From Antedon mediterranea (taxonomy: Eukaryota; Animalia; Echinodermata), in NCBI RefSeq assembly GCF_964355755.1, contig NC_092676.1, positions 5,185,888-5,249,887 on the forward strand: 64,000 nt of DNA, read 5' to 3'. Below, one piece after another: positions 16,712 through 63,476 of this stretch. Made by a program: the position numbers and the translations under genes. The first letter of the stretch is position 1; every line of letters begins with the position of its first letter. The notes under the pieces are model-generated. The model worked only from the letters and a program-made list of their open reading frames with translations. It did not search any database and had not been told where the DNA came from.

Positions 16712-16857
16712 TCTAAAAAGTAAAATGAAAAATGTGAACTGATTATTATTAACTGAATTAGTCTATATTAGAATTCTGAGTATAAATATACATTTACGCT
16801 TTAATTATTGTCAGCGTGCGCAAGTAATTTGTATAAATAGGTTCAAGTTCAATATCA

Positions 16858-22637: not shown

Positions 22638-22851
22638 ACTCTATTACTCTGATCGTTGCCATATTGCCACGACGATCCGATGAAAAAGCTATTAGACTTA
22701 GATTATCTTTACAAAGATTGCCTTGTTGGAAAGCCTTGTACGTATCAGTGTGAAATCATGAATGATACCAACTCGCGCAAACAAAATTACGTTGCTCCAT
22801 AGTCCTTTCCTGAAAACACATTAATGTCAATCATGTCTCCTCCATAGGAGC

Positions 22852-29500: not shown

Positions 29501-30606
29501 TCTGGCTTAGTTATTTAGCCTGCTAAATTGGTTGCCTAGCCACCAAAGTAAGCGAGAATTGGCCCATGAAACCAACATTTCCGGGTACAATAACTAAGTC
29601 TGAACGGCCCCCACAATGGCCTTGAAAAGACCAGCACACAGTTCTTACCAATTCCTGCAAATATCGGCTGTGACGCAGAGTAGTAGCCAATCAAAACGGA
29701 GTTCCAGCAAAACGGTTTTGAAAGCACCTTCAAGTACACGACAGGCATGAAGTACATGACGGTAGTAAACACAAGAAAATGACAAAGAAACAGCAAAATA
29801 ATCTTAATTCGTCTCTGAGATTTGGTGGAAGTAAACAATATTCTTACAGAAGAAAAGAACTTGGTAAGACCAAAGCAAATAGATTGTTTTGTTGTGACCG
29901 TTTCTGGTATAATAAATATTATGTATGGAACAACTATCATAAAGAGGCCAGCTGCAAGACAATATGGCGGAATAAATCCTGTAGCATCGACCCAGTATCC
30001 GACCCCAACTTGTGCAAGGCCAGAGCCACACATTACTAACGTCTGTAGTATTATAAATTTCATAGTGCGTTGGCGCTTTTTGGCAGTGTCAGCCACAATG
30101 GCTAAAGACACGGAAAAGAACAACTGGTATCCACCAAAACAGTTCCAGACAAAGTTTCCGATCACCAGATATGTCAAAGGCAAGGACAAATATGCCACAG
30201 TTATAACAGTCAGACATTGGGAAATTATTCCAAAATTTGATATTAATAGAGGTATTTTCCGTCCGATGGTATCACTAATAGTGGCGAATATTGTTGTTGA
30301 AATTAGCATAGGGAACGCGCCACATGCTCCGTATGCTAGGCTCCATGCTGTAACCTCTTGTTGTACTTGGTCCTGTAGTGAACTATCATTGGCATCATCT
30401 GAATCGTTCAAACAATTCGATTTGCTTGTCTCCGATGTCAGGTTGTATTTCTGACGTACTCGATGGTTAACATACTGTATTGTGATAGGCGCAGTTAGCC
30501 CAACACCGATCATTACAAGAAGCATAGCTGGTTCGATAAAGACACGACGTGGTCGATTGGCACCAGGTCTTCTGACAATTGGCGGTTCTTTTTCTGTCGT
30601 ATCCAT
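26531..30606 (-). CDS. SLC46-family (PCFT-like) MFS transporter, paralogue B, ~486 aa; coding exons 30606-29649, 28862-28731, 28613-28530, 27340-27184, 26660-26531
   Basis: Family motifs VFIEP, QYV, SDTIGRK, IVADT, PFCW and LSKTVDDKEQG-TLFA. GT-AG junctions and an open joined frame (1461 nt). Acceptor ttcttgcag lies just upstream of the ATG. C-terminal YTRL. Confidence 0.9.
26989..27147. mobile_element. PIF/Harbinger-type MITE in intron 4 of paralogue B
   Basis: TIR AGCTTGGTTCCCA / TGGGAACCAAGCT, TSD TTA (26986-26988 and 27148-27150), internally palindromic. Confidence 0.85.
27833..28529. repeat. 30-bp minisatellite (~23 units) at the start of intron 3 of paralogue B
   Basis: Unit tatctatacaaacgttaaaatacaccaagtc(a/c/t). 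The array abuts the exon 3 donor. Confidence 0.95.
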
Positions 30607-30659
30607 AATTGAAATTCCTGCAAGAAACAAACTGACAATACTAATAGTGTTTTAGCGTA

Positions 30660-34800: not shown

Positions 34801-35690
34801 TCATCGAAAATAAATTTTGACAATTTTGAACATTTTAAGCGCGCGTACGCAAGCGTTATATGCGCTACGCACGTAATTGTATTGCCATATGATGAAATAT
34901 GACCTGAAATTTATGAGTACCAAATTTTGTTTAATTGTGATTCATGCTTGTGAAGATATGATTACAAACGTGATTTCGTAAAATCGCGCGTAGACCGCGT
35001 AATTTTTGATTACGCATCGTGAAAATATAACCACATCGATTCCTGGCCATAAGGAATATACTCTGAAAAATTGACTTAGATAGATGAAACTGATATCAAG
35101 ATAATTCACGGACAAAATAGTGCTAAGGAAAGAATAAATAAATAAATAAATAAATAAATAAAGATTTTGACAGAATCAAGAGGTTATATGCATATCATGC
35201 ATATAACCTAATAAAGATTTTGACAGAATCAAGAGGTTATATGCATGATAATGCATATAACCTAATTAAGTTTTTAATATTAGTTTAAGCTAGGCCATGT
35301 AACCTAGTCAGTATCAGTAGTCCAGACCCTAGCTAGGCTAGAGTAGTATAGCCGGCCGCCCGCGCCGCGCCCGCCTGGTGGAACACCACCGCTTCGTTTT
35401 CCTTCGTCGGTTCTTCGACGGTATGCTAACTTATAACAATATTTGCACTACTAAAATAAGGAAATGCGATATTTATCTTTAATTTTGAATCATTCTTAGA
35501 AATTACTATAAAAATATGGGTGTGCATGATTTCACAATCTGTCGAAAAACCTTGCGCAATTTGCAGATTACTTGCGCAATTTAATACGTTGCTTGCGCAA
35601 TTTGAAACACATGTTTCAATTCAAATTGCGCAAGGATTTTTTTTGCGCAATTTCAAATTGCGCAAATCGTTCAAATCGCGCATAACACTA
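31858..35690. mobile_element. TIR element with AATTGCGCAA subterminal repeats (hAT-like ends), interrupted
   Basis: TIR tgttatgcgcgatttgaacgatttgcg...aaattgcgcaaaaaaaatccttgcgcaatttgaa, with its reverse complement ending ...aaatcgcgcataacacta. TSD not clear. Confidence 0.7.
32309..35266 (-). mobile_element. Helentron-type non-autonomous element (HINE/DINE-1-like, ~1.47 kb) with a second copy (33726-35212) inserted into its own microsatellite
   Basis: On the minus strand: 5' subTIR plus palindrome (taggttatatgcat...atgcatataacct), (TTTA)n, body, then 3' subTIR plus stem-loop (ttcgtca-tag-tgacgaa) ending ctagtt. Two near-identical bodies and two stacked 5' ends are present. Confidence 0.8.
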
Positions 35691-42315: not shown

Positions 42316-43063
42316 ATGTTCATCTTAAGAGGAATCATACTACTGTTTTCTATTGCTGCTATATTGATTGCATTGTTATTTTCTCGCTGTTTTAGTATCA
42401 GCTTCACTGACGTTAATGTTACCGATCATGTCACCGATTCCGTTATCGATCCTGTTAGCTTTCCGGTTACTGATACCAGTCCTGCTATCGATCATGTTGC
42501 CTTTCCAGTTAACCAGACGAATCCTGTCAGCGATCATGTCACCGATACTGTAACCCATCCTGTCACCTTTCCGGTTGCCGAGACGAACCCAGTTGCTGAT
42601 CATGATGTTACCGATTCTGTTGATCGTGTTATCAATCCTGTTACCGATCATGATGTTACCGATTCTCTTGATCGTGTTACCAATCATGTTACCGATCATG
42701 ACGTTACCGATGCTGTTGATCGTATAATCAATCCTGTTACCGATTCTGTTGATCGTGTTACCGATCATGATGTTACCGATTCTGTTGATCGTGTTACCAA
42801 TCATGTTACCGATCATGATGTTACCGATGCTGTTGATCGTATTATCAATCCTGTTACCGATCATGATGTTACCGATTCTGTTGATCGTGTTACCGATCAT
42901 GATGTTACCGATTCTGTTGATCGTGTTACCAATCCTGTCACCGATCATGATGTTACTGATTCTGTTGACCGTGTTACCAATCCTGTTACCGATCATGATG
43001 TTACCGATTCTGTTGATCGTGTTACCAATCCGGTTACCAAGACCAATCCTGTCACCCTTCCCG
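42316..43063 (+). CDS. LRR gene exon 1: signal peptide or signal anchor plus VTDHDVTDSVDRVTNP-type repeats
   Basis: MFILRGIILLFSIAAILIALLF followed by ~220 aa of T/D/V/P-rich repeats. Donor CCCG|gtatga. Confidence 0.78.
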
Positions 43064-46000
43064 GTATGATTTCTTTACCTAATTTGTTAGCCGATTAATT
43101 TTAATTGTTATAAATTGGGCTGGCACACAACTAGATATATTTATTTTACTTGGACTGTCACAGCTAAGTAGACACGTCTGACTAGAGGTACATATTGCAA
43201 TAGGCCTGTGTCACAACCAAAGATTGAATAGCGCTATAGTATCTTGGTCACAGAGGTAGTCTGAACTGACACGTCTAACTAGATTGCAATTGGGCTGTCA
43301 CAGTTTAGATAGACATGTCTGAGTGTAGATTGCATTTATTAGTGCTGTCACAGCTAGGTAGACGTGTCTGACTGTAGATTGCATTTATTAGTGCTGTCAC
43401 ATCTAGGTAGACATGTCTGACTGTAGATTGCTTTTATTAGTGCTGTCACAGCTAGGTAGACATATCTGACTGTAGATTGCATTTATTAGTGCTGTAAAAG
43501 CTAGGTAGACATGTCTGACTGTAGATTGCATTTATTATAGCTAGGTAGGGTCTACTTGGGCTGTCACTGACATGTCTGACTAGATATTGAATCATTTGTA
43601 GTTTGAAAACAAAGGTTTCCCCTCTGTCCCCGTTTTGCACAATGTCAGCCCTATGTGATTATTCTTTACAAGAGATATATATATTATATATGGTGATTAT
43701 ATCTCTGTCTTTACAGCTGAAGCAGAATGTCCAACCGGCTGCAAATGTGTTGCGCCTAGGTGGTCTACTGACGGTCACAGAGTGCGATGTCGTCCTCCAT
43801 GGAGTATTAATAACATCTCAACTATCAACGAGTATAATGATCATGTTCCAATAACAGAATTGTAAGTATGGGTTATTGTGAGGCGAACATTCATTGTTGT
43901 AGGGCTAAGTCTATTTATAAATTTTAAAACTATATTTAAAAATATATAAAAGATTATAAATATATAATTAGTGGCACCGATTAATAAAAATATCAAAAAT
44001 AATTTCATTTCCTGGTTTCTATACCCCAACACCAATCACTACATCACTGTACCTATAAGCGTAGAACATAACGAAATAAGTACATTGCCAACCCATGTGT
44101 TTGATAGTTTGACAGCACTGACAAAACTGTAGGCCTAAATATTAATTTCAATGTTTAACTTTCTTCTAAATAAATAATAAATTATTCATTCTTTAAGGAT
44201 TTTTAGGATGAATCGGTTAAAGATATTAATAGTTGAATTGGTCATTTAAGAGCCTTTAAAATTACTATATCATCATAAACATTAAGATGTTAGGGAATAT
44301 TCAGCATTCTCACATAAAAATTATTCAAAATGTATAGGCAAAAAAAAATAAAAATATAGAAATATTTTAAAATTTGCTATAGAAAATGTTTTCATGAACA
44401 ATAATAGTTTATTTTACTGTAGTCTAATTAAAGTATACTCATCAGCATTTACATATCAAACATCTTGAATATTGTAATTACACTGTACATTGTTTTTACT
44501 TTGAAGGGATTTGTACGGAAACCAAATAAGTACATTGCCAGCCAATGTATTTGATAGATTGACAGTATTGACATGGCTGTAAGTATTTTGCTAATAATAC
44601 TTTTTTAAATTTTTTTAAACAAGAAATAGTACATTAATTTATAATAATGTATGATATGCATTTAATCATCTCTTAATGAATAATAATATAATTCATAACA
44701 ATGAATATTATGCATTGTATCATTTTGTAATGTGATCAATACATACAGTATTAATATTAAAACGACTTAGTGTTAATATTTAATTTAAATATTATCAATT
44801 CATTTTTTTAAAAGATTTTACATCTCATGGTATTTATTTTTTTTGTTTAAAGATGTATTGTCCCTTGAAACACAAAAAAATGAATGAAAAAAAAATATTT
44901 TAAATTTAAATTGGCCATATCAAAGTAATATTAAAGTTATTCACTTTAAGTCGAAAATTCCAGCCAAAAACAACAATTTTACGTAATTAACAGGTAAATT
45001 AATTAGATTACATTTCATCTGGGAAATCGTCGCAAGCGAAAGTAAACAAAGATTTCAAACCATGAGTATGCATTATGCATGATGCTAATTAGGATTGTTT
45101 ACAACTTGTCACGGTTGAGAAGGTGTTTTCACACAGATCGCGAGGAAGTTTTATGATTATGCATACAGAGTAGCCAAATAAGTGCGTTGCATTATGAGAT
45201 ATGTTTTGATTGAAAACTTTGACTGGAAGTCAAAGTTATTTTTTGAACAAAAAAACATCTGTATTTCGGTTAAATTCTTTTTTTTTTTCGACTAATTTTT
45301 GGTGAAAGTTAATAACTATTATGATATTTCCAAATGACCAACTTTTTTTCAAAATGAAAAAAAAAATTTTTTTGGAATTAGTCAAAGGGACAATACATCT
45401 TTAATTTGTTTTAACAATAAATAATGAATATTTAAATGCATTGTATCATTTCATAATATAATCAATATATAACAGTATGTATTTCAAAAACCACTTTTAA
45501 AAAGCTTAAAATTAATTTAAAAAGAAAAACAATATTAATAGGAACAATATGTATGTTAATAATTAAATGTGTAAAGAGAGAAAGAGAGTACAAAATAACA
45601 ATGTGAAGAGAAATGTATGGAAATAAAAGTGGGACAAAACTTAGGTAAAAGACACAAAAAAAACACTTAGCATTAGTGAAATACTTAACCATACTCAATC
45701 AATTATTTGTTTAAAATTTTAAAATATTATTAATTGTTAATTGGTCATTAAATAAAGAGATTTATTGTTATTATTATGTTATTAAATGCATTAAGATGAT
45801 AAATAATAATTAGAAATCAATCCTCATTTAAAAAAAAAAATAATGAAATGAAATTCATAACAATGAATATTATGCATTGTAATCAATACATTCAGTTTTT
45901 TCAATCATTTAAAAGACATTCATTGTAATATTGTTTTTATTTAAAGAGATTAATTATCATATTACTAAAACATTTAGGAAAGGAAATTTACATGAAAGTA

Positions 46001-49000
46001 TTAGTATTATGCTATTATCACTTGATAGTGTGATACTATAACATACACACTGTATGATATGCACTAGAGAAAACAAATATTGCTTTAGAGTAATAATAAA
46101 ATAAATATTGGTTATCTTATAACAGGGATTTACAGAAAATGTTTATGTTTGCCTAAATAAAGTATACTCATCAGCATTTACTATGTAGATAATGTCCCTA
46201 TCATTGACTGAAAGACTATATATTTCAAAATGTATTGAAAAATTAAAAGTCTAGATATCAAACAGCTTGTAATTGTTACTGTACATTGTTTTTACTTTAA
46301 AGGAGTTTGAGCGGAAACCAAATAAGTACATTGCCAGCCAATGTATTTGATAAATTGACAGCATTGACATACCTGTAAGTATTTTGCTAATGATACTTTC
46401 TTCTTTTAATTTGTTTTAAAAAGAAATAATACATTAATTTATAATAATGTATGATATGCATTTAATCATCTCTTAATTAATAATAATATAATTCATAACA
46501 ATGAATATTATGCATTGTATCATTTTGTAATGTGATCAATACATACAGTATAGATTTATAACCACTTAGTGTTAATATTTAATTTAAATATTATCAATTC
46601 ATTTTTTTTTAAAGATATTAACAACTCATGGTATATTACATTTTGTTTGTTTATTTTGTTTTAACAATAAATAATGAATATTTAAATGCATTGCATCACT
46701 TCATAATATAATCAATATATACAGTATGTATTTAAAAAAACACTTAAAGCTTAAAATGAATTGAAAAAGAAAAACAATATTAATAAGAACAATATGTATG
46801 TTAATAATTAAATGTGTAAAGAGAGAAAGAGAGTACAAAATAACAATGTGAAGAGAAAAGTATATGGAAAAAAAAGTGGGACAAAACCCAGGTAAGACAA
46901 AAAAAAAACACTTAGCATAGTGAAATATTTAACCATACTCAAAACATTATTTGTTTTTAATTTTAAAATATTATTAATTGTTAATTGGTCATTAAATAAA
47001 GAGATTTAATCATTATGTTATTAAATGCATTAAGATGATAAATAATAATTAGAAATCAATAATACCTGTAAGTATTTTCCTCATTTCTAAAAGAAATAAT
47101 GAAATGAAATTCATAACAATGAATATTATGCATTGTAATCAATACATTCAGTTTTTTTAATCATTTAAAAGACATTCATTGTAATATTGTTTTTATTTAA
47201 AGAGATTAATTATCATATTACTAAAACATTTAGGAAAGGAAATTGACATGAAAGTATTAGTATTATGCTATTATCACTTGATAGTGTGATACTATAACAT
47301 ACACACTGTATGATATGCACTAGAGAAAACAAATATTGCTTTAGTAATAATAAAATAAATATTGGTTATCTTATAATAGGGATTTACAGAAAATGTTTAT
47401 GTTTGCCTAATTAAAGAATACTCATCAGCATTTACTATGTAGATAATGTCCCTATCATGGACTGAAAGACTATAACAAATAATTCAAAATGTATAAGAAA
47501 AATAAAAATTGAAATACCAAACAGCTTGAATATTGTAATTGTTACTGTACATTGTTTTTACTTTGAAGGGGTTTGAGCGGTAACCAAATAAGTACATTGC
47601 CAGCCAATGTATTTGATAGATTGACAGCATTGACACACCTGTAAGTATTTTGACTCATATTAATTCCTTCGTTTAATTTGTTTTTAAATAAATAATAAAA
47701 TAATTTATAATACTAAATATTATGCAGTAACATTATTTAACCATTATTAATAAATTATTCATTTTTTAAAGATTATCAATAATTGTTCATTGATCATTTT
47801 TTAAAGAGATTTAATTAAATACATAAAAATGGGAAATACATAAAGATGATAATAAATATTTAGAATTTACTATAGAATTTGTGATAATAAATAACACATT
47901 ATTATTTTAACAGTTACTTTTTGCCTAATTAAAGAATACTCATCAGCATTTAGTATGTAGATAATGTCCCTATCATGGACTGAAAGACTATACAAAATAA
48001 TTCAAAATGTATAAGAAAAATAAAAGTTGACACATCAAACAGCTTGAATATTGTAATTGTTACTGTACATTGTTTTTACTTTGAAGGGATTTGGGCTGGA
48101 ACAAAATAAGAACATTGCCAGCCAATCTATTTGATAGATTGACAGCATTGACAACACTGTAAGTATTTTGCTAATGATACTTTCTTTGTTTAATTTGATT
48201 TAAAAAGAAATAATACATTAATTTATAATAATGTATGATATGTATTTAATCATCTCTTAATTAATAATAATATAATTCATAACAATGAATATTATGCATT
48301 GTATCATTTTGTAATGTTGATCAATACATACAGTATATATTTATAACCACTTAGTGTTAATATTTAATTTAAATATTATCAATAAATTTTTTTTAAGATA
48401 TTACATCTCATGGTATTTAATTGTTTTGTTTAATTTGCTGTAACAATAAATAATGAATATTTAAATGCATTGCATCACTTCATAATATAATCAATATATA
48501 CAGTATGTATTTAAAAAAACACTTAAAGCTTAAAATTAATTTAAAAAGAAAAACAATATTAATAAGAACAATATGTATGTTAATAATTAAATGTGTAAAG
48601 AGAGAAAGAGAGTACAAAATAACAATGTGAAGAGAAAAGTATATGAAAATAAAAGTGGGACAAAACTCAAGACAAAAAAACACTTAGCATAGTGAAATAT
48701 TTACCAATCTCAATAAATTATTTGTTTTAAATTTTAAAATATTATTAATTAGTCATTAAATAAAGAGATTTAATCATTATGTTATTAAATGCATTAAGAT
48801 GATAAATAATAATTAGTAATCAATAATACCTGTAAGTATTTTCCTCATTTCTAAAAGAAATTAAATGAAATGAAATTCATAACAATGATAATTATGCATT
48901 GTAATCAATACATTCAGTTTTTTCAATCATTTAAAAGACATTCATTGTAATATTGTTTTTATTTAAAGAGATTAATTATCATATTACTAAAACATTTAGG

Positions 49001-52000
49001 AAAGGAAATTGACATGAAAGTATTAGTATTATGCTATTATCACTTGATAGTGTGATACTATAACATACACACTGTATGATATGCACTAGAGAAAATAAAT
49101 ATTGCTTTAGTAATAATAAAATAAATATTGGTTATCTTATAACAGGGATTTACAGAAAATGTTTATGTTTGCCTAATTAAAGAATACTCATCAGCATTTA
49201 CTATGTAGATAATGTTCCTATCATTGACTGAAAGACTATAACAAATAATTAAAAATGTATATGAAAAATAAAAGTTGACATATCAAACACTTTGAATATT
49301 GTAATTGTTACTGTACATTGTTTTCACTTTTAAGGTATTTGAGCTGGAACCAAATAAGTACATTGCCAGCCAATGTATTTGATAAATTGACAGCATTGAC
49401 ACACCTGTAAGTATTTTGCTAATAATACTTTCTTTGTTTAATTTGATTTAAAAAGAAATAATACATTAATTTATAATAATGTATGATATGTATTTAATCA
49501 TCTCTTAATTAATAATAATATAATTCATAACAATGAATATTATGCATTGTATCATTGTGTAATGTGATCAATACATACAGTACATATTTATAACCACTTA
49601 GTGTCAATATTTAATTTAAATATTATCAATTCAATTTTTTTAAGATATTACATTTTATGGTATTTAATTTTTTTTTAAATTTGCTTTAACAATAAATAAT
49701 GAATATTTAAATGCATTGTATCACTTCATAATATAATCAATATATACAGTATGTATTTATAAAAACACTTAAAACTTAAATTAATTTAAAAAGAAAAACA
49801 ATATTAATAAGAACAATATGTATTTTAACAATTAAATGTGTAAAGAGAGAAAGAGAGTACAAAATAACAATGTGAAGAGAAAAGTATATGGCAACAAAAG
49901 TGGGACAAAACCCAGGTAAGACAAAAAATAAACACTTAGCATTAGTGAAATATTTAACCACACTCAATAAATTATTTGTTTTAAATTTTAACATTTTATT
50001 AATTGTTAATTGGTCATTAAATAAAGAGATTTAATCATTATGTTATAAAATGCATTAAGATGATAAATAATAATTAGATATCAATAATACCTGTAAGTAT
50101 TTTCCTCATTTCTAAAAGAAATAATGAAATGAAAATCATAACAATGAATATTATGCATTGTAATCAATACATTCAGTTTTTTAAACCATTTAAAAGACAT
50201 TCATTGTAATATTGTCTTTATTTAAGAGATTAATTATCATATTATTAAAAACATTTAGGAAAGGAAATTTACATGAAAGTATTAGTATTATGCTATTATC
50301 ACTAGATAGTGTGATACTATAACATACACACTGTATGATATGCACTAGAGAAACCAAATATTGCTTTATTAATAATAAAATAAATATTGGTTATCTTATA
50401 ACAGGGATTTACAGAAAATGTTTATGTTTGCCTAATTAAAGAATACTCATCAGCATTTACTATGTAGATAATGTTCCTATCATTGACTGAAAGACTATAA
50501 CAAATAATTAAAAATGTATAAGAAAAATAAAAGTTGACACATCAAACAGCTTGAATATTGTAATTGTTACTGTACATTGTTTTTACTTTGAAGGGATTTG
50601 CAAATTAACCAAATAAGTACATTGCCAGCCAATGTATTTGATAAATTGACAGCATTGACAAAACTGTAAGTATTTTGCTAATAATACTTTCTTTGTTTAA
50701 TTTGATTTAAAAAGAAATAATACATAATGTATGATATGTATTTAATCATCTCTTAATTAATAATAATATAATTTATAACAATGAATATTATGCATTGTAT
50801 CATTTTGTAATGTGATCAATACATACAGTATATATTTATAACCACTTACTGTTAATATTTAATTTAAATATTATCAATTCATTTTTTTTAAAGATATTAC
50901 AACTCATGGTATTTATTTTTTTTGTTTAATTTGTTTCAACAATAAATAATACTTAAATGCATTATATCACTTCATAATATAATCAATATAGGCATATACA
51001 GTATGTATTTATAAAACCACTTAAAACTTAAAATTCATTCAAAAAGAAAAACAATATTAATAGGAACAATATGTATGTTAATAATTAAATGTGTAAAGAG
51101 AGAAAGAGAGTACAAAATAACAATGTGAAGAGAAAAGTATATGGCAATAAAAGTGGGACAAAACCCAGGTAAGACAAAAAATAAACACTTAGCATTAGTG
51201 AAATATTTAACCATACTCAAAACATTATTTGTTTTAAATTTTAAAATATTATTAATTGTTAATTGGTCATTAAATAAAGAGATTTAATCATTATGTTATT
51301 AAATGCATTAAGATGATAAATAATAATTAGTAATCAATAATACCTGTAAGTATTTTCCTCATTTCTAAAAGAAATTAAATGAAATGAAATTCATAACAAT
51401 GAATATTATGCATTGTAATCAATACATTCAGTTTTTTTACTCATTTAAAAGACATTCATTGTAATATTGTTTTTATTTAAAGAGATTAATTATCATATTA
51501 CTAAAACATTTAGGAAAGGAAATTGACATGAAAGTATTAGTATTATGCTATTATCACTTGATAGTGTGATACTATAACATACACACTGTATGATATGCAC
51601 TAGAGAAAACAAATATTGCTTTAGTAATAATAAAATAAATATTGGTTATCTTATAATAGGGATTTACAGAAAATGTTTATGTTTGCCTAATTAAAGAATA
51701 CTCATCAGCATTTACTATGTAGATAATGTCCCTATCATTGACTGAAAGACTATAACAAATAATTCAAAATGTATATGAAAAATAAAAGTTGACATATCAA
51801 ACACTTTGAATATTGTAATTGTTACTGTACATTGTCTTCACTTTTAAGGTATTTGTACAGGAACCAAATAAGTACATTGCCAGCCAATGTATTTGATAAA
51901 TTGACAGCATTGACATACCTGTAAGTATTTTGCTAATGATACTTTCTTTGTTTAATTTGATTTAAAAAGAAATAATACATTAATTTATAATAATGTATGA

Positions 52001-55000
52001 TATGTATTTAATCATCTCTTAATGAATAATAATATAATTCATAACAATGAATATTATGCATTGTATCATTTTGTAATGTGATCAATACATACAGTACATA
52101 TTTATAACCACTTAGTGTCAATATTTAATTTAAATATTATCAATTCAATTTTTTAAAGATATTACATTTCATGGTATTTATTTGTTTTTTTAATTTCCTT
52201 TAAAAATAAATAATGAATATTTAAATGCATTGCATCACTTCATAATATAATCAATATATACAGTATGTATTTAAAAAAACACTTAAAGCTTAACATTTAA
52301 AAAGAAAAACAATATTAATAAGAACAATATGTATGTTAACAATTAAATATGTAAAGAGAGAAAGAGAGTACAAAATAACAATGTGAAGAGAAATGTATAT
52401 GGAAATAAAAGTGGGACAAAACTTGGGTGAGACAAAAAAAAACACTTAGCATAGTGAAATATTTAACCATACTCAAAACATTATTTGCTTTAAATTTTAA
52501 AATATTATTAATTGTTAATTGGTCATTAAATAAAGAGATTTAATCATTATGTTATTAAATGCATTAAGATGATAAATAATAATTAGAAATCAATAATACC
52601 TGTAAGTATTTTCCTCATTTCTAAAAGAAATTAAATGAAATGAAATTCATAACAATGAATATTATGCATTGTAATCAATACATTCAGTTTTTTCAATCAT
52701 TTAAAAGACATTCATTGTAATATTGTTTTTATTTAAAGAGATTAATTATCATATTACTAAAACATTTAGGAAAGAAAATTTACATGAAAGTATTAGTATT
52801 ATGCTATTATCAGTTGATAGTGTGATACTATAACATACACACTGTATGATATGCACTAGAGAAAACAAATATTGCTTTAGTAATAATAAAATAAATATTG
52901 GTTATCTTATAACAGGGATTTACAGAAAATGTTTATTTTTGCCTAATTAAAGAATACTCATCAGCATTTACTATGTAGATAATGTCCCTATCATTGACTG
53001 AAAGACTATACAAAATAATTCAAAATGTATAAGAAAAATAAAAATTGAAATACCAAACAGCTTGAATATTGTAATTGTTACTGTACATTGTTTTTACTTT
53101 GAAGGGATTTCAGCTGGAACCAAATAAGTACATTGCCAGCCAATGTATTTGATAGATTGACAGCATTGACAAAACTGTAAGTATTTTGCTAATGATACTT
53201 TCTTTGTTTAATTTGTTTTAAAAAGAAATAATTCATTAATTTATAATAATGTATGATATGCATTTAATCATCTCTTAATGAATAATAATATAATTCATAA
53301 CAATGAATATTATGCATTGTATCATTTTGTAATGTGATCAATAAATACAGTATTAATATTAAAACCACTTAGTGTTAATATTTAATTTAAATATTATCAA
53401 TAAAATTTTTTAAAGATTTTACATCTCATGGTATTTAATTGTTTTGTTTAATTTGTTTTAACAATAAATAATGATAATTTAAATGAATTGTACCACTTCA
53501 TAATTATTCAATATAAACAGTATGTATTTAAAAAACCACTTAAAGCTTCAAAATAATTTAAAAAGAAAAACAATATTAATAGGAACAATATGTATGTTAA
53601 CAATTAAATGTGTAAAGAGAGAAAGAGAGTACAAAATAACAATGTGAAGAAAAATGTATATGAAAATAAAAGTGAGACAAAACTCAAGACAAAAAAACAC
53701 TTAGCATAGTGAAATAATTAACCATACTCAATAAATTATTTGTTTTAAATTTTAAAATATTATTAATTGGTCATTAAATAAAGAGATTCAATCATTATGT
53801 TTTTAAATGCATTAAGATGATAAATAATAATTAGAAATTGTTAATACCTGTAAGTATTTTCCTCATTTCTAAAAAGAAATAATGAAATGAAATTCATAAC
53901 AATGAATATTATGCATTGTAATCAATACATTCAGTTTTTTAAACCATTTAAAAGACATTCATTGTAATATTGTTTTTATTTAAGAGATTAATTATCTTAT
54001 TATTAAAAACATTTAGGAAAGGAAATTTACATGAAAGTATTAGTATTATACGGAAGCCCGTTCGGGCCACAAGATAACTATATTTAAAAAGCTGTTATCT
54101 GGCGGCCGCCACTTAATTATCTGGCAGCCGCCACTTAATTATCTGGCGGCCGCCACTTAATTATCTGGCGGCCGCCACTTAATTATCTGGCGGCCGCCAC
54201 TTAATAATTAGTACATGTCCCGTCACGTGACATGTACGTGCATTGGATCAGAGGCGATGTTGCATATGGAACGCCATCGCTGCCTCCGGCAGCAAACTTT
54301 AATTCTATTCGGCTCTTTTACAACCATTACGTTCGGCTCTTTTAGCATTCGGCGCATTTCTATTCGGCCCATTTACCATATTTACGATTAAAGATGTGTT
54401 GAATACCCTAAATTAATTCATCTTTTTCCAAATTTTGAGAGAGAAAGGGTAAATTATTATTGCTAAAAGTTAGGCTGACACTAGACTAGGTCTAGCTAGC
54501 CTAGGCCATAAATCAAACCTTTTCTCTTTCAAAATAGTCAATAAGGTGGGACAAGTTCTCTATAACACATTAATCATGTCAATAAAATGATTAGTCATAT
54601 TGAAATAGCCTTCAAATTTATTTAATTCAACCAACCAAACACTCTACATGCTGCATCTATATGTTTTGTAAACTTTTCATAGACTTATTTCCAGCCGTTA
54701 ATTTTCTTCCATTTGACCCCATGTTAAAGGTTAGAATTTAATTGCGCCGTATAAAAAAATCAAAGAGAGCCGAACGTAATGGTAAATGGGCCGAATAGAA
54801 ATGCGCCGAATGGTAAAAGAGCCGAATAGAATTAAAGTTTGCTGCCGGAAGCAGCGATGGCGTTCCATATGCAACATCGCCTCTGATCCAATGCACGTAC
54901 ATGTCACGTGACGGGATATGTACTAATTATTAAGTGGCGGCCGCCAGATAATTAAGTGGCGGCCGCCAGATAATTAAGTGGCGGCCGCCAGATAATTAAG

Positions 55001-58000
55001 TGGCGGCCGCCAGATAATTAAGTGGCGGCCGCCAGATAATTAAGTGGCGGCCGCCAGATAATTAGGTGGCGGCCGCCAGATAATTAGGTGGCGGCCGCCA
55101 GATAATTAGGTGGCGGCCGCCAGATAATTAAGTGGCGGCCGCCAGATAATTAAGTGGCGGCCGCCAGATAACAGCTTTTAAAATATAGTTATCTTGTGGC
55201 CCGAACGGGCTTCCGTAGTATTATGCTATTATCACTTGATAGTGTGATACTATAACATACACACTGTATGATATGCACTAGAGAAAACAAATATTGCTTT
55301 AGTAATAATAAAATAAATATTGGTTATCTTATAACAGGGATTTACAGAAAATGTTTATGTTTGCCTAATTAAAGAATACTCATCAGCATTTACTATGTAG
55401 ATAATGTCCCTATCATTGAGTGAAAGACTATAACAAATAATTAAAAATGTATAAGAAAAATAAAAGTTGACATATCAAACAGCTTGAATATTGTAATTGT
55501 TACTGTACATTATTTTTACTTTGAAGGAGTTTGAGCAGAAACCAAATAAGTACATTGCCAGCCAATGTATTTGATAGATTGACAGCATTGACACACCTGT
55601 AAGTATTTTGCTAATGATACTTTCTTTGTTTAATTTGTTTTAAAAAGAAATAATACATTATTTTTATAATAATGTATGATATGCATTTAATCATCTCTTA
55701 ATGAATAATAATATAATTCATAACAATGAATATTATACATTGTATCATTTTGTAATGTGATCAATACATACAGTATAGATTTATAACCACTTAGTGTTAA
55801 TATTTAATTTAAATATTATCAATAAATTTTTTTCAAGATATTAACTACTCGTGGTATTTCATTTTTTTGTTTATTTTGTTTTAACAATAAATAATGATAA
55901 TTTAAATGCATTGTATCACTTCATAATATAATTAATATATAAAGTATGTATTTAAAAAACCACTTAAAGCTTAAAATGAATTTAAAAAGAACAAAAAATA
56001 TTAATAGGAACAATATGTATGTTAACAATTAAATGTGTAAAGAGATAAAGAGAGTACAAAATAACAATGTGAAGAGAAATTGTATATGGAAATAAAGTGA
56101 AATATTTAATTCAACCTACTGAATAAATTTTTTTTTTTTAATTTAAACATATTATTTATTGTTAATTGGTCATTAAATAAAGAGATTTAATCATGATGTT
56201 ATTAAATGCATTAAGATGATAAATACTAATTAGAAATCAATAATACCTGTAAGTATTTTCCTCATTTTTAAAAAGAAATAATAAAATTAAATTCATAACA
56301 ATGAATATTATGCATTGTAATCAATACATTCAGTTTTTTTAAACCATTTAAAAGACATTCATTATTAAATTGTCTTTATTTAAGAGATTACTTATCATAT
56401 TATTAAAAACATTTAGGTAAGGAAATTTACATGAAAGTATTAGTATTATGCTATTATCACTTGATAGTGTGATACTATAACATACACACTGTATGATATG
56501 CACTAGAGAAAACAAATATTGCTTTAGTAATAATAAAATAAATATTGGTTATCTTATAACAGGGATTTACAGAAAATGTTTATGTTTGCCTAATTAAAGA
56601 ATACTCATCAGCATTTACTATGTAGATAATGTCCCTATCATTGACTGAAAGACTATACAAAATAATTCAAAATGTATAAGAAAAATAAAAATTGAAATAC
56701 CAAACAGCTTGAATATTGTAATTGTTACTGTACATTGTTTTTACTTTGAAGGAGTTTGAGCATTAACCCAATAAGTACATTGCCAGCCAATGTATTTGAT
56801 AGATTGACAGCACTGACAGACCTGTAAGTATTTTGCTAATGATACTTTCTTTGTTTAATTTGTTTTAAAAAGAAACAATACATTAATTTATAATAATGTA
56901 TGATATGCATTTAATCATCTCTTAATGAATAATAATATAATTCATAACAATGAATATTATGCATTGTATCATTTTGTAATGTGATCAATACATACAGTAT
57001 AGATTTATAACCACTTAGTGTTAATATTTAATTTAAATATTATCAATTCATTTTTTTAAAGATATTAACAACTCATGGTATATTAAATTTTTTTTGTTTA
57101 ATTTGTTTTACCAATAAATAATGAATATTTAAATGCATTGCATCGCTTCATAATATAATCAATATATACAGTATGTATTTAAAAAAACACTTAAAGCTTA
57201 AAATGAATTGGCTACTTAATTTTTTAAAAGATAGAGAACAGCGTGTTAAGCTTAATCACACGTTGTCCTCGTTGTTGAAAGTTAACACGGGTGTTCCACA
57301 AGGTTGTGTGTTATCACCTTTATTGTATACAATATACACAAATGATTGTAAGTCAAATAATACAAAAACTGAGATTATTAAATATGCAGACGACACTGCT
57401 CTGATTGGTTATCTGGATTCAAAAGATGATTCAATGACAGGCTTCTTAGACAGTATTAATATTTTTCACAAATGGTGTAAAGATAATTTTTTAGATCTAA
57501 ATATAAATAAAACTAAAGAGATGGTTTTTGATTTTCGGAAGAAGATAAACTACCTTCCCAAGATCAAAATCAATGGTGAGACCATTCTGGAAGTTAAAAC
57601 TTACAAATATTTAGGGGTTGAAATTGATAATAAACTTAAATTTGATGCAAATAGTAGGTGCATATACAATAAATTACAAAAACGTCTCTTCTTTCTACGC
57701 AAATTAAACTCTTTTAAGATTGACCGTACTATTTTACAACTTTTTTATACTTCTATCTTAAACAGTGTACTTAGTTTTTGCCTAATATGTTATTATGGTA
57801 ATTCACGTTTTAAAGATAGACTTTTACTTAATAAAATAGTTAAACAAGGCAGTAGAATAGTAGGCTCTGAACAAATTCCCCCTGAATATTTACATTTTTT
57901 TTTATTAGTTCTATGTGTAAATATGTTAACTGCACACTACAAAGTTGTGGATGACAGTGTGGTGTAATGGTTATGTATCCAGCCTCTCACAGTTGAGATC

Positions 58001-61000
58001 GCTGGTTCAAGTCCCACTGAGGATTTTTTTTTTTTTATTATTATTATTATTTTTTTTTTTGTGGACCTTGATCTTTGACCCTGACCCTTCAAAATTTAAC
58101 CACAATTATATGATGTGTCATTGATCATTGTGGCTAAGTTTGGTGAGAATCGGATCAAAACTGTGGTCTCTAGGCAGTAAAATAGTTTTTTGTTAGTTGT
58201 GACCTTGACCTATGACCTTTCCCCCTCAAATTTGAACTCGTCCGAGCTTTTTGGGCATAGATCATTGTGTCAAAATTTGGTTAGAATCGGATAAAAACTG
58301 TGGCCTCCAGGCTGTTCACAGACACACACACAAACACACACACATACACACACAAACACACAAACATACAGGGGTGAAAACATAACCTCCTTGGCGGAGG
58401 TAATAAGAACAATATGTATGTTAATAATTAAATGTGTAAAGAGAGAAAGAGAGTACAAAATAACAATGTGAAGAGAAAAGTATATGGAAATAAAAGTGGG
58501 ACAAAACCCAGGTAAGACAAAAAAAACCCACTTAGCATAGTGAAATATTTAACCATACTCAAAACATTATTTGTTTTAAATTTTAAAATATTATTAATTG
58601 TTAATTGGTCATTAAATAAAGAGATTTAATCATTATGTTATGTTATTAAATGCATTAAGATGATAAATAATAATTAGTAATCAATAATACCTGTAAGTAT
58701 TTTCCTCATTTCTAAAAGAAATTAAATGAAATGAAATTCAAAACAATGAATATTATGCATTGTAATCAATACATTCAGTTTTTTAAACCATTTAAAAGAC
58801 ATTCATTATTAAATTGTCTTTATTTAAGAGATTAATTATCATATTATTAAAAACATTTAGGTAAGGAAATTGACATGAAAGTATTAGTATTATGCTATTA
58901 TCACTTGATAGTGTGATACTATAACATACAGACTGTATGATATGCACTAGAGAAAACAAATATTGCTTTTAGTAATAATAAAATAAATATTGGTTATCTT
59001 ATAACAGGGATTTACAGAAAATGTTTATGTTTGCCTAATTAAAGAATACTCATCAGCATTTACTATGTAGATAATGTCCCTATCATTGACTGAAAGACTA
59101 TACAAAATAATTAAAAATGTATAAGAAAAATAAAAGTTGACATATCAAACGGCTTGAATATTGTAATTGTTACTGTACATTGTTTTTACTTTGAAGGATT
59201 TTGGGCTATAACCAAATAAGTACATTGCCAGCCAATGTATTTGATAGATTGACAGCACTGAGAGAACTGTAAGTATTTTGCTAATAATACTTTCTTTGTT
59301 TAATTTGTTTTAAAAAGAAATAATACATTAATTTCTAATTATGTATGATATGCATTTAAGAGCCATTGTCTGTAAAAATCAAAGATTTGGTGGCAGATGT
59401 AAAAAATGGATTTCTCTAACATTTTTACCATGAATAGACATTTCAATAAAAAGCATATCTACAACATTCATTTTAATTTTTAGCCTCTGTTGCCATGACA
59501 ACGGTCAATTATCCAAATGTTGATGTTTTTGCCATTTTTCACAGATTTTCTAGGCCTATAGTGAAAAAGTACAAACTTGTATAGGCCTACTTATTTTAAC
59601 CAAAAATACTTACAGTATACAGTTTTTGTTTATAGCAGTGTAAACAACATGTATTGAGTTCCATTTAATGTAGAAAAAAAAATAAAAAAATGGAGTTTGG
59701 TTGATACCATTATTTTAAAAAGGGGTGTTTTTAAAAAATATTTTTTTTATAAAAGTATACCTCATAAACGTACCTATAACTTCCAAAGTGGTGTTTTTAT
59801 ATCAATGAGGTTTTTTAATTTGATAGTCAATAGGTTTGTCAACAATAATCACGAAAAAAACACTGGGGTAAATTTTGTACATAGGTTTTGTGTTGCCAGG
59901 AAAATACGAAAAATACAAAAAAATACAAACAAAATATCAACAAACAAAACACATGAAACACAATTTAAATATGGCTAATCCAATAATAAAATGTATATGT
60001 GGCTTGTCATAATGCTACTAGAGTCATAGTTTAGATAAAATAGGAGAATGTGTTGCCAGGTTTATTTAAATTAATTGCCTGAAAAACAGTATTTTGCATT
60101 GAAATATTTAGTTGATGGAAAATAATGTTAAACTTTGAAATAATTGCGTGAATGGTTTTTATAAATTTTTAAATCTATTTTGTGTAAAGAGATACAGAAA
60201 GACCTCCCAAAAAATCTGACCTTGTAAATAGGTCATTTGAGGTCAAAAGGGGTCAGAATGCAAAACAGGACAGGTCCCCACTTTACTAAAACTATTAATG
60301 TTTGATCAAAATTTACAAGATAGTTAAAAAAATTCTCAACAATTTTCATTTTTTACCTATAGTGTTACCTTAGCAACCATTTATATATGTGTATATTGCA
60401 TTTATAATTTTTCTCAATTTGACTTCTACTGCATTTTATTAATCTTAAAGTGATGACAAACTTGACCTTGTAAATTCATTCATTTTGAGGTCAACATTTT
60501 ACCATAGTAACTGTTTTTATGCGAAAATATTTAAAAAATAAGGGGTTTTTCATAAATACAAAACATTTTTTCTACATAGTTTTACATTTCTACTTTTTGC
60601 CAAATTTACTTTAAATACTGAATCCTAATAATCTCAGAAAGAAAGTCTTGACAAATCTTAATAAAGGTAACAAATTGACCTTTAGTGTTATCTTAAACCT
60701 GTTTACGTAACTAAGGATATTTAAATAAAATTTGGAGTTTTCATGAAAAAAAAAATTTACATATTAAGGTCAAATGACATCAACATTTTACCTATAGTGT
60801 ATTGTAGCAACTGTTTCTATACGTAACTAAGTACAATATTTTTAATATGGGGTTTCATGAATACAAACAATTGATTACATAGCTTTACTATTTTTTTCCC
60901 AAATTTACTTATCTACTGAATCCCAGAAAATGTCTGACCTTGTGAAAGGGTCATTTGTTGGGTCAAGTTATGTCAAAATGTATTATTTATGTTATCTTAG

Positions 61001-63113
61001 AACCGGTTTCTATGCGTAACTAAGGATAATTGTTTTTTTATATACAGTTGAACCTCCCGTAAGTGGCCACCCTCGGGACCTGGAAAAGTGGCCGCTTACG
61101 GGCGGTGACCCCTTACCGGATAATTATTATCAGATAATTATTAATTAATAATTAATACTGAATCCAACCATCACAGTAAAAAAAAATATAGAATTTAAAA
61201 CCAATATTTAAAAATAAAGTGTGATATTTACATGCTGACCTTAAATGAAATGAAATTTCACATCAGGGCTTCAATATTTGTTGTGTAGCATTAACATACC
61301 TGAGTATATCATTGACTTTTGATTGGTTCTATTTTGGGGAGGGGAAAGTGGTGGATCCAGGAGGCGAGGGTCTAAAAACTTTATGTCCTATCTTTTGCAT
61401 TGCAATGTTTAACTTGGGGTGGGTGGGGGCTTGGAGAAAGGGGGAGGGGGTGGGATGGAGGAGTTTGAATCCGTCTATTTGTTGGGGCGATGGTAGCGGC
61501 AGTGTGGGTGGTGCTTGAATGCATGCATTTGACACTCTATAGTGGATGATCGACCAAAGTGTTACAGTTTATCTTTTTGTGATTATAGTCGGGGTAGGGT
61601 GGGGTGGGGGGGGGGGGGGTGGTAGTCGAAAGTGGTGGTGGATGGGCATGTGGGATCTGCTTAGGTTAGCAAATAAAAGAAGTAAACAAATGAAAGAGGA
61701 GCTTCAAAATAAGAGAGGAGTAATCTGTTGCAGAGATTAAAATTCACAACGATCTGATAATTTATTCAAATTTCCAGAAGATATAACTTATAAAATGACA
61801 TTAAAACCGGGAATTACAGAATCTATAATTAAAAACATTTTTTTTTTTTCTCACAACACAACTAGAACTATAAAACATTCAGAATTTTTCTGACCAATGA
61901 GTTTCAAATCAAAAAATCAAAGAAAATAAAATGTTTTTACTAATATACCATGTGTTTTTTTTTTATAAAAATGCCTATGTTTCTCGCAACACTGCTTGTA
62001 GATTTTTAAATTACCCCAGTATTTTATTTTAGAAATCAATTATTAAACATTAGAACTACCTATTTGTAATAAATCAGCTAAAAAAATACACCACTTTGGG
62101 CGTTATGGTGAGTTAAAGTTTAGTTGCATTGAACAATTTAAAAAAAGTGAAAAACACCCCCTTTTTAAATAAATGGTATCTCCCTAAGTATGAAATAAAA
62201 AAAAATAAAAAAATATGGAACAGGTACACAATGCATTGTTATTATGCATACACTAATTATTTTTTATAATTAAATGAACAAAACAAAAATATCGTTCATG
62301 AAAGTAGTACCAATATCCATTTTAAAAAACCTTAAAAAAGGACAAAATTTGTCAAAAACACAAATTTGGTCGTTGCCATGGAAGTATAGGTGTGAAATAA
62401 AAAATACTTCATATTTGATTTCTCTCAACACATATATAGACATGTGCAAAATTTGAAATTATTTGTTTTTAAATTTTAAAATATTATTAATTGGTCATTA
62501 TTAATCAATTTGTTATTAAATGCAATCAATAATACTTGTAAGTATTTTCCTCATTTCTAAAAAGAAATAATGAAATGAAATTCATAACAATGAATATTAT
62601 GCATTGTAATCAATACATTCAGTTTTTTCAATCATTTAAAAGACATTCATTGTAATATTGTTTTTATTTAAAGAGATTAATTATCATATTACTAAAACAT
62701 TTAGGAAAGGAAATTGACATGAAAGTATTAGTATTATGCTATTATCACGTGATAGTGTGATACTATAACATACACACTGTATGATATGCACTAGAGAAAA
62801 CAAATATTGCTTTAGAGTAATAATAAAATAAATATTGGTTATCTTATAACAGGGATTTACAGAAAATGTTTATGTTTGCCTAATTAAAGAATACTCATCA
62901 GCATTTACTATGTAGATAATGTTCCTATCATTGACTGAAAGACTATAACAAATAATTAAAAATGTATAAGAAAAATAAAAGTTGACACATCAAACAGCTT
63001 GAATATTGTAATTGTTACTGTACATTGTTTTTACTTTGAAGGGATTTGCAAATTAACCAAATAAGTACATTGCCAGCCAATGTATTTGATAAATTGACAG
63101 CATTGACAAAACT
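42316..63113 (+). CDS. Multi-exon extracellular leucine-rich-repeat protein (hydrophobic N-terminus + T/D/V-rich stalk + LRRNT + at least 12-13 single-exon VLR-like LRRs); 3' end outside window
   Basis: Exon 42316-43063 (phase 1) joins in frame to 43717-43861 (phase 1-2), then to a series of 72-bp phase 2-2 exons with ttttacttt(g/t)aag acceptors and gtaagt donors. No stops in any exon. Confidence 0.88.
43160..43585. repeat. 49-bp intronic minisatellite
   Basis: gctgtcacagctaggtagacatgtctgactgtagattgcatttattagt at 43344, 43393 and 43442, with degenerate flanking copies. Confidence 0.88.
43717..43861 (+). CDS. LRR gene exon 2: LRRNT cap
   Basis: ctttacag|...|gtaagt. Translates AEAECPTGCKCVAPRWSTDGHRVRCRPPWSINNISTINEYNDHVPITEL (CPxxCxC...VxC pattern). 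Confidence 0.88.
44057..44128 (+). CDS. Divergent first LRR exon (SVEHNEISTLPTHVFDSLTALTKL) with an atypical acceptor
   Basis: Homologous to the downstream exons. Donor gtaggc. The expected acceptor reads ctAT, but an in-frame AAG acceptor 3 nt downstream would give a 69-bp exon (44060-44128). Confidence 0.55.
44507..44578 (+). CDS. LRR cassette exon 1: DLYGNQISTLPANVFDRLTVLTWL
   Basis: 72 bp, ag|...|gtaagt, phase 2-2. Confidence 0.9.
44851..45400. mobile_element. TTAA-targeting MITE with AG-initiated TIRs (Kolobok-type)
   Basis: TIR AGATGTATTGTCCC / GGGACAATACATCT with TTAA on both sides. The empty site ttttgtttaatttg is visible in sister repeat units. Confidence 0.85.
46303..46374 (+). 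CDS. LRR cassette exon 2: SLSGNQISTLPANVFDKLTALTYL
   Basis: 72 bp, ag|...|gtaagt, phase 2-2. Confidence 0.9.
47569..47640 (+). CDS. LRR cassette exon 3: GLSGNQISTLPANVFDRLTALTHL
   Basis: 72 bp, ag|...|gtaagt, phase 2-2. Confidence 0.9.
48087..48158 (+). CDS. LRR cassette exon 4: DLGWNKIRTLPANLFDRLTALTTL
   Basis: 72 bp, ag|...|gtaagt, phase 2-2. Confidence 0.9.
49335..49406 (+). CDS. LRR cassette exon 5: YLSWNQISTLPANVFDKLTALTHL
   Basis: 72 bp, ag|...|gtaagt, phase 2-2. Confidence 0.9.
50594..50665 (+). CDS. LRR cassette exon 6: DLQINQISTLPANVFDKLTALTKL
   Basis: 72 bp, ag|...|gtaagt, phase 2-2. Confidence 0.9.
51849..51920 (+). CDS. LRR cassette exon 7: YLYRNQISTLPANVFDKLTALTYL
   Basis: 72 bp, ag|...|gtaagt, phase 2-2. 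Confidence 0.9.
53105..53176 (+). CDS. LRR cassette exon 8: DFSWNQISTLPANVFDRLTALTKL
   Basis: 72 bp, ag|...|gtaagt, phase 2-2. Confidence 0.9.
54049..55217. mobile_element. Foldback element with TACGG...CCGTA ends and 6-bp TSD (IS3EU-type, non-autonomous)
   Basis: TIR begins TACGGAAGCCCGTTCGGGCCACAAGATAACTAT and extends over 300 bp. TSD GTATTA (54043-54048 and 55218-55223) is confirmed by empty sites in sister units. 22-bp subterminal repeat atctggcggccgccacttaatt, 5 copies left and ~11 right. Confidence 0.9.
55527..55598 (+). CDS. LRR cassette exon 9: SLSRNQISTLPANVFDRLTALTHL
   Basis: 72 bp, ag|...|gtaagt, phase 2-2. Confidence 0.9.
56752..56823 (+). CDS. LRR cassette exon 10: SLSINPISTLPANVFDRLTALTDL
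   Basis: 72 bp, ag|...|gtaagt, phase 2-2. Confidence 0.9.
57209..57885 (+). mobile_element. Truncated non-LTR retrotransposon reverse transcriptase fragment (Rex1/Babar-like, CR1 group)
   Basis: Motifs GVPQGCVLSPLLY, KYADDT, WCKDNFLDLNINKTKEMVFDFRK, YKYLGV and RLFFLRKL. The first ~12 codons of the listed ORF are host intron repeat. Confidence 0.9.
57890..58403 (-). mobile_element. Helentron-type non-autonomous element fragment with a tRNA-like Pol III segment
   Basis: Minus-strand 5' end ATTACCTCCGCCAAGGAGGTTATGTTTT followed by (GT)n, with tgaccttga repeats. tRNA-like segment on + at ~57953-58030 (TGGTGTAATGG ... GGTTCAAGTC ... T-run). Confidence 0.72.
59197..59268 (+). CDS. LRR cassette exon 11: ILGYNQISTLPANVFDRLTALREL
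   Basis: 72 bp, ag|...|gtaagt, phase 2-2. Confidence 0.9.
59360..62455. mobile_element. ~3.1-kb intronic DNA-transposon insertion (TTAA-anchored, imperfect long inverted repeats, right end deleted) with a nested Tc1/pogo-like end at ~61043
   Basis: Host repeat breaks at gcatTTAA|gagcc. Inverted pairs include gataccattattttaaaaaggggtgttttt / aaaaacacccctttttaaataaatggtatc and gttgccatgacaacg / cgttgccatggaag. TA-CAGTTGAACCTC plus a hairpin at ~61041-61115. Confidence 0.6.
63042..63113 (+). CDS. LRR cassette exon 12: DLQINQISTLPANVFDKLTALTKL (identical to exon 6)
   Basis: 72 bp, ag|...|gtaagt, phase 2-2. Confidence 0.9.
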
Positions 63114-63476
63114 GTAAGTATTTTGCTAATAATACTTTCTTTGTTTAATTTGATTTAAAAAGAAATAATACATAATGTATGATATGTATTTAATCATCTC
63201 TTAATTAATAATAATATAATTTATAACAATGAATATTATGCATTGTATCATTTTGTAATGTGATCAATACATACAGTATACATTTTAAACCACTTAGTGT
63301 TAATATTTAATTTAAATATTATCAATTCATTTTTTTAAAGATATTACATCTCATGGTATTTAATTTTTTTGTTTAATTTGTTTTAACAATAACTAATGAA
63401 TATTTAAATGAATTGTATGAATTCATAATATAATCAATATATACAGTATGTATTTATAAAACCACCTAAAGCTTAA

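Follow-up and report, generated by a model that had tools for sequence, protein, structure and literature searches.

Tandem LRR cassette exons with four hypervariable codons in a homogenised exon-intron array of a candidate recognition gene from a feather star

The ROCO genes of brown algae encode one LRR per 72-nt phase-2 exon and have four selected concave sites, according to the available text of PMC11378527. The LRR gene described here, which lies in a 64-kb window (the whole stretch of DNA analysed), likewise encoded one LRR per 72-nt phase-2 exon in 12 of its 12 cassettes, and its four variable positions corresponded, with the same spacing, to the selected concave sites 14, 16, 18, and 19 of the ROCO exons (PMC11378527). 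In the type II exons of Ectocarpus LRR-kinase genes, the selected sites 3 and 23 given in the accessible part of PMC3341825 show the same ends-of-exon register as that found here. However, ROCOs are described as GTPases of the LRR-ROC-COR type in whose genes LRR copies also occur within introns and in inverted orientation, whereas all LRR copies in the window (13/13; 12 cassettes and the first LRR exon) were on the plus strand and in frame, and neither inverted nor orphan copies were found among these 13. The present gene also differed from the brown-algal genes, as far as they are described there, by a hydrophobic N-terminus, a stalk, and a cysteine cap, and by introns homogenised along with the exons.

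A second parallel is provided by the repeats of the fungal HNWD genes, which, in the available text of PMC13449251, are 80-100% identical, have four hypervariable positions under diversifying selection, and evolve in concert by unequal crossover with exchange between paralogues. Our cassettes resembled them in these respects, and their pairwise differences (0-14 per 72 nt) fell within that range of identity. On the other hand, HNWD-type genes are reported there to carry WD40, ANK, or TPR repeats in intracellular NLRs, while the repeats here were LRRs of a predicted extracellular protein, with one exon per repeat and 1.2-kb introns within the unit. Receptors of the HNWD type are also marked by repeat numbers that differ between individuals and by a NACHT or NB-ARC ATPase N-terminal to the repeats. 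No Pfam match to NACHT or NB-ARC was found upstream of the repeats here, where the predicted exons encoded a hydrophobic segment, a stalk, and a cap.

The likeness at the protein level was to lamprey and hagfish VLRs and the amphioxus VLR-like protein Bf66946, which share with this gene a first LRR, 24-residue repeats of a very similar consensus, and, as predicted here, a cap, judging from the accessible portions of PMC3900441, PMC5395774, and PMC4731796; their variation lies on the concave sheet, as predicted here. VLR cassettes are, however, assembled by a somatic, conversion-like process, whereas those described here were exons with splice sites on either side and lay within the gene; the stalk of VLRs is C-terminal (PMC5395774, available text) but the stalk-like region was N-terminal here. 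Instead of the incomplete germline gene with outside donors that is typical of VLRs, the window contained in-frame, splice-flanked cassettes downstream of the cap in one array. VLRs are further characterised by deaminase-linked assembly in lymphocytes and by an LRRCT that precedes the C-terminal stalk and a GPI or membrane anchor. The gene behaves as an HNWD or ROCO repeat array and resembles a VLR at the protein level.

Modular LRR exons have also been described elsewhere. The LRR domains of Slit-type and human NLR genes are exon-modular, and in the human NLR genes the LRR exons keep the frame and the exon border lies at a fixed place in the beta-sheet, as here (PMC6642158, available text); in Tetrahymena, arrays of 90-bp exons consist of phase-2 LRR exon-intron units shuffled by unequal crossover (PMC6564038, available text). 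Near-identical units with four hypervariable codons in one gene were not described in the accessible parts of these accounts. Among echinoderm LRR receptors, the sea urchin TLRs show positive selection mainly on the concave strands, but they are mostly single-exon genes with a TIR domain and are diversified between paralogues, not between tandem exons as here (PMC3367398, available text). An intron that splits the LRR strand is already known from human NLR genes and the brown-algal type II exons (available text of PMC6642158 and PMC3341825). Searches of a literature that lay largely outside the subscription journals brought up no account either of the gene itself or of a crinoid family of this type; as far as these searches reached, the gene is new for its lineage, while concerted repeats in which four sites are hypervariable are a kind known from brown algae and fungi.

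Table 1. Positions of the LRR gene, its cassettes and introns, and neighbouring genes in the window
Feature	Position	Strand	Remark
Sulfotransfer_5 gene and two MFS transporter ORFs	15860-16762, 22825-23868, 29536-30651	-, +, -	
First visible exon, 748 nt	42316..43063	+	predicted; phase-1 donor at 43064
Cysteine-rich LRR N-terminal cap exon, 145 nt	43717..43861	+	predicted; 47 full codons, four Cys; phase 1 to 2
First LRR exon, divergent	44060..44128	+	84% to cassette 1 over 62 nt
LRR cassette exon 1	44507..44578	+	
LRR cassette exon 2	46303..46374	+	
LRR cassette exon 3	47569..47640	+	followed by a short 446-nt intron of different type
LRR cassette exon 4	48087..48158	+	
LRR cassette exon 5	49335..49406	+	
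LRR cassette exon 6	50594..50665	+	
LRR cassette exon 7	51849..51920	+	
LRR cassette exon 8	53105..53176	+	
LRR cassette exon 9	55527..55598	+	
LRR cassette exon 10	56752..56823	+	
LRR cassette exon 11	59197..59268	+	
LRR cassette exon 12	63042..63113	+	identical to exon 6
Eleven introns	44579..63041	+	nine share a ~1.18-kb unit with 2.8-6.9% pairwise divergence; four carry insertions
463-nt tract	50370..50832	+	identical to 62818-63280; spans exons 6 / 12

All twelve cassette exons in the window (Table 1) were 72 nt long, of phase 2, and flanked by AG and GT, and contained neither a stop codon nor an indel; AAG stood directly 5' and GTAAGT directly 3' of each, and all shared one open frame. 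The donors were identical and strong in 12 of 12 (GTAAGT) and the acceptors were nearly identical. When the window was searched for 72-mers that fit the cassette pattern and have AG/GT borders, the search returned only these twelve, of which 11 were distinct because exons 6 and 12 were the same. Unit homology past exon 12 stopped near 63477, and the 3' part of the gene was not identified between the array and the end of the window. The sulfotransferase-domain gene, 26 kb upstream, was 100% identical to a protein recorded for Antedon mediterranea, with those of other echinoderms next, so this feather star is very likely the source of the DNA. No sign of a link between the Sulfotransfer_5/MFS neighbours and the LRR gene was seen in the window. 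The remaining upstream sequence contained a near-perfect tandem duplication of ~1.4 kb (about 32310-35140; matching rows 1417 nt apart, by eye) and long satellite arrays (240-8078) with periods of ~35, 76, and 56 nt.

Variation among the cassettes was concentrated at codons 1, 3, 4, and 23. The residues that the earlier note had listed were correct at codon 1 (DSGDYDYDSSID; 12/12 exons), at codons 3-4 (YG,SG,SG,GW,SW,QI,YR,SW,SR,SI,GY,QI), and at codon 23 (WYHTHKYKHDEK; 12/12 exons), 17 of the 48 variable residues being Y, W, or D. We also confirmed that exon 4 alone departs from the common block of codons 7-16 (S>R and V>L), and that silent variation beyond the four codons is limited to TTG/CTG at codon 21 (2/12). 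The description of the variability as confined to these codons was overstated, because eight further replacement variants occurred elsewhere in the exon; in addition to the two in exon 4, they were an R/K split of 7:5 at codon 17, L>F at codon 2 (exon 8), Q>K (exon 4) and Q>P (exon 10) at codon 6, A>V at codon 20 (exon 1), and T>R at codon 22 (exon 11), all of which had been missed. The intron does split the beta-strand, as had been noted, with the cut falling inside the Leu codon (between CT and G, phase 2) and not after it.

The invariant core (codons 7-16; e.g. 46322-46351) had the potential to form a hairpin in which 11 bp enclose a loop of 5 nt (-8.4 kcal/mol). This stability was equalled in 2 of 5000 synonymous recodings, while 7-bp arms were also present in 3 of 39 intron tiles and all copies of the core derive from one event; the two changes in exon 4 disrupted pairs of the hairpin without compensation. 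We regard this hairpin as no more than a lead, towards either a recombination site or a control of splicing.

The mean pairwise diversity was 0.539 over the 12 nt that make up the four codons (0.527 when exon 12 is excluded), compared with 0.033 in the other 60 nt of the exon and 0.050 in the introns. The latter value was obtained from 9 of the 11 introns (~1.18 kb aligned, with insertions cut out of three); intron 3, which is of the other type, and intron 11, which is broken by a large insertion, were left out. Therefore, the diversity at the four codons exceeded the intronic background, as the earlier note had expected of it. Among 988 gap-free intron triplets, the numbers as diverse as codons 1, 3, 4, and 23 were 1, 2, 0, and 0, respectively. 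Variable sites accounted for 11 of 12 positions in the four codons and for 159 of 1057 in the introns (Fisher p 1e-8; 9 exons). The edges of the introns were not elevated: diversity was 0.043 in the last 25 nt and 0 in the first 12 nt.

Site models were run in our own implementation (M1a/M2a and fixed-site models; 11 distinct exons x 23 codons). The comparison of M1a with M2a favoured a selected class (2dL of 77.9 on a star tree and 47.4 on the exon ML tree), with a posterior of 1.0 at codons 1, 3, 4, and 23 and at most 0.3 at every other codon, in a small sample in which recombination violates the single-tree assumption. Since few silent sites inform these models, we added a fit in which silent and replacement rates were separated and trees were rescaled to the intron divergence. 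At codons 1, 3, and 23, replacement was 22-24-fold the intron rate and silent change 0-1-fold (upper bounds of 4.5 and 7.4), while the codons neighbouring the variable ones were at 1.2-2.2-fold. No silent variants were present at these three codons, and the third base of codon 1 was T in 12 of 12. An equal-rate model was rejected for this subset (p<0.001 on the star tree and 0.004 on the exon tree), from which codon 4 had been split off after the data were seen; for the four codons jointly, it was rejected on the star tree (p 0.002) but not on the exon tree (p 0.079). Two silent pairs occurred at codon 4, where the silent rate was elevated (p 0.002-0.007 against 1x). The Nei-Gojobori pN/pS ratio at the four codons was 0.574/0.339 = 1.7, calculated on 1.8 silent sites.

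The remaining 19 codons taken together showed no slowdown relative to the introns (replacement of 0.9-1.25x), and because their rate was close to that of the introns, their uniformity is explained by homogenisation. Within this scaffold, the core residues alone appear constrained (pN of 0.009 vs 0.061 for the other scaffold codons). The absence of exon indels (0 vs 2.6 expected) was non-significant (P 0.08). Of the two processes proposed earlier, diversifying selection on a homogenised background was supported by the diversity contrast, M1a/M2a, the calibrated rates, and the mosaic units described below. Targeted mutation was disfavoured at codons 1, 3, and 23, where replacement was high and the silent rate unraised, and was ambiguous at codon 4 and for the four codons jointly on the exon tree. 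Regional hypermutation was ruled out by the neighbouring codons and the intron edges, both of which were at background.

Exchange between units was apparent in the introns and around the exons. The incompatibility between intron sites grew with distance, from 0.22 within 10 nt to ~0.5 beyond 80 nt, and a PHI-like permutation test was significant in the introns (p 5e-5; 61 sites) and in eight exon-centred units (p 0.007; the other four units, which lacked a homologous flank on one side or the other, were omitted), although homoplasy in AT-rich DNA may contribute to this signal. The 463-nt tract shared by units 6 and 12 was bordered by flanks differing at 13/296 and 13/183 nt (4-7%), and such an identity may have been left by a recent conversion or crossover. 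A duplication of these units in the assembly was considered and rejected, because the identity stops after 463 nt and the flanks have diverged; no other pairs of at least 250 nt with 97% identity or above were found. Exons 2 and 7, and exons 3 and 9, had the 3' 59 nt of the exon in common, with different 5' heads. The earlier proposal that a crossover creates new strands was borne out by a D-Q-I head that is preceded by His at one junction and by Glu at a different one. A special role of the junction position was rejected, since 5' and 3' halves reassort inside exons as well. Strands have been recombined across introns, and neighbouring strands have also been recombined via the exon core.

The introns themselves had several further features. 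Intron 3 (47641-48086, 446 nt) contained short stretches closer to the intron that follows the first LRR exon than to the 1.18-kb unit, and represents a second intron type, perhaps an older one. Eight introns carried a copy of the motif of exon end plus donor in their middle (47063, 48827, 50088, 51341, 52597, 53845, 56244, and 58688); no open exon preceded it in the three copies viewed, and it is perhaps a cryptic donor, or else what remains of a unit that was older and shorter. The insertions in introns 1, 8, 10, and 11 (44851-45399, 54050-55215, 57205-58400, and 59360-62457) were of several kinds. Terminal inverted repeats were present in two of them, the first of which was very deep in DNA contigs, and the second of which also had 22-bp subterminal repeats; another contained a fragment of a reverse transcriptase (RVT_1, E 1e-15), and the remaining one was large and unclassified.

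Upstream of the array and on the same strand were predicted exons for a hydrophobic segment, a stalk, a cap, and a first LRR. The N-terminus of the first visible exon, ahead of which a further exon may lie, consisted of ~24 hydrophobic residues (hydropathy up to 2.75), predicted to be a signal peptide or a type II anchor, followed by a repetitive stalk-like region of ~220 aa (22% V, 21% D, and 17% T). The cap exon sits in the LRRNT position; it had no Pfam match, and its sole match in PDB was weak (E 1.1), to a VLR cap. The first LRR exon had AT instead of AG at the 72-nt register (44055-44060; register 44057); the next AG, 3 nt downstream, gives an in-frame exon of 69 nt with a first strand one residue shorter. 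The exon phases were compatible along the gene (1, then 2, then 2-2), and the exons are probably spliced into one solenoid of 13 or more repeats. Because the stalk-like region comes after the hydrophobic N-terminus and before the cap, the sequence makes a type II topology plausible, in which a membrane anchor would be followed by the stalk, the cap, and then the LRRs; a cleaved signal peptide would be the alternative.

The repeat was of the 24-residue LRRV type, close to the VLR LRRV consensus. Against PDB, the cassette aligned in register with 126 chains at E values up to 10, and the best matches were VLRs and VLR-derived or designed LRR proteins. Codons 1, 3, 4, and 23 are predicted to line the concave binding face, on the basis of the alignment to solved VLR and repebody chains and of the published LRR consensus, the x positions of which are assigned to the concave face in the available text of PMC3138743, PMC5395774, and PMC3900441.

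Paralogues of the gene exist. DNA contigs from four sequencing runs of one sample, which were short and covered introns as well as exons, contained cap exons that differed by 21-23 letters from the copy in the window, and a divergent cassette 3' end was present in 9 contigs of X2 and 9 of X4. The summed depth at the cassette bin was >100x that of single contigs on unique flanks (X1: 3879 vs 12-22); although not a copy number, this hints at many paralogous copies. Given the diverged copies of both cap and cassette, the gene is likely one member of a family, among which cassettes may be exchanged. Word-based searches with the cap exon and with the open frame containing exon 7, which covered longer proteins, found no database protein sharing three 5-residue words, which is weak evidence. 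A phmmer search of the cap against 1.84 billion representatives gave eight matches, the five scanned being unrelated domains with no LRR; an ESM Atlas search returned unnamed matches of 0.82 or lower, and the core 30-mer had no exact match in metagenome contigs.

We consider it probable (roughly 0.7) that this is a spliced gene for an extracellular LRR recognition protein, the units of which are homogenised in the germline while four binding-face residues are under diversifying selection. Units of exon plus intron would likely be copied and homogenised by unequal crossover and gene conversion. Introns and exon cores are near-identical, so the substrates for mispairing are long, and exchange therefore alters the number of repeats and re-pairs variable residues; within a single strand, this re-pairing would take place across the intron, and between neighbouring strands it would take place across the exon core. 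Replacement changes at the four predicted binding-face residues are likely maintained by diversifying selection, which probably favours novel specificities of binding in a recognition protein, the ligand of which may be an innate-immune or other non-self one. The same germline mechanism might also serve a non-microbial ligand, in self/non-self, gamete, or symbiont recognition. This is a real, if minor, possibility, since the fungal HNWD genes, the closest mechanistic analogue, work in allorecognition (PMC13449251, available text) and nothing in the window identifies a ligand or a tissue; the analogies with echinoderm immune TLRs selected on the concave face (PMC3367398) and with the amphioxus VLR-like protein that binds bacteria via concave Asp residues (PMC4731796), each as given in the accessible text, would point to microbes instead. 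A mutation process targeted to the four codons, with selection in a minor role, appears improbable: the raised silent rate of codon 4, the joint result on the exon tree, the many multi-base differences, and AGC as the commonest codon 3 are in its favour, but such a process would need to pass over the Leu codon as well as codons 2 and 5, and would have to produce codons 1, 3, and 23, at which equal rates were rejected.

Other alternatives concern how the cassettes are used. All of them being of 72 nt and phase 2-2, any skip preserves the frame, and regulated exon skipping or mutually exclusive splicing of the Dscam type, with a subset of the cassettes used per cell or transcript, could create a new hybrid strand each time (43 strands are reachable through skipping, vs 11 native ones); skipping of LRR exons is known in brown-algal ROCO genes and in human NLRP3 (available text of PMC11378527 and PMC6642158), and the core hairpin is compatible with such control. 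Nevertheless, splicing is unlikely to be the main diversifier, because the twelve strong donors and their acceptors show no sign of grading and the diversity of the four codons in the germline cannot be accounted for by splicing itself. The two explanations are compatible with each other. That the cassettes are donors for somatic assembly, as in lamprey VLRs, is hardly credible in spite of the close match to the LRRV consensus and of the contig depth, which suggests many more genomic cassette copies without being a copy number: they are part of the gene, where all are in frame on a single strand and each has splice sites, none of the 13 copies in the window is inverted or orphan, and the N-terminal stalk is unlike that of VLRs (PMC5395774, available text). 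A decaying or mis-assembled array without present function is very improbable. The scaffold codons at the intron rate, the altered acceptor of the first LRR exon, the four intron insertions, and the identity of exons 6 and 12 would fit it, but twelve exons have no stop, indel, or broken splice site, the end of that identity after 463 nt argues against a collapsed or duplicated assembly, and decay would not focus change on four predicted exposed positions.

A more far-reaching idea, which we regard as quite doubtful, is that feather stars possess an overlooked family of stalked type II LRR receptors of the cell surface with hundreds of interchangeable VLR-like cassettes, the repertoire being multiplied somatically in each animal by skipping or by conversion, the latter possibly helped by the core hairpin. 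If true, a VLR-like combinatorial receptor would have evolved independently in an echinoderm. On the germline explanation that we prefer, the introns travel with the exons and therefore offer an unusually clean internal neutral control for selection and gene conversion per repeat. Because the two word-based searches brought up no database protein for its exons while a neighbouring gene was annotated, repeat-like genes of this type may be missing from annotations. Few diversified receptors are listed for echinoderms, and the gene is a candidate for a crinoid one; a VLR-like binding surface that is diversified by ordinary germline recombination in a deuterostome would be a useful comparison for the origin of VLRs.
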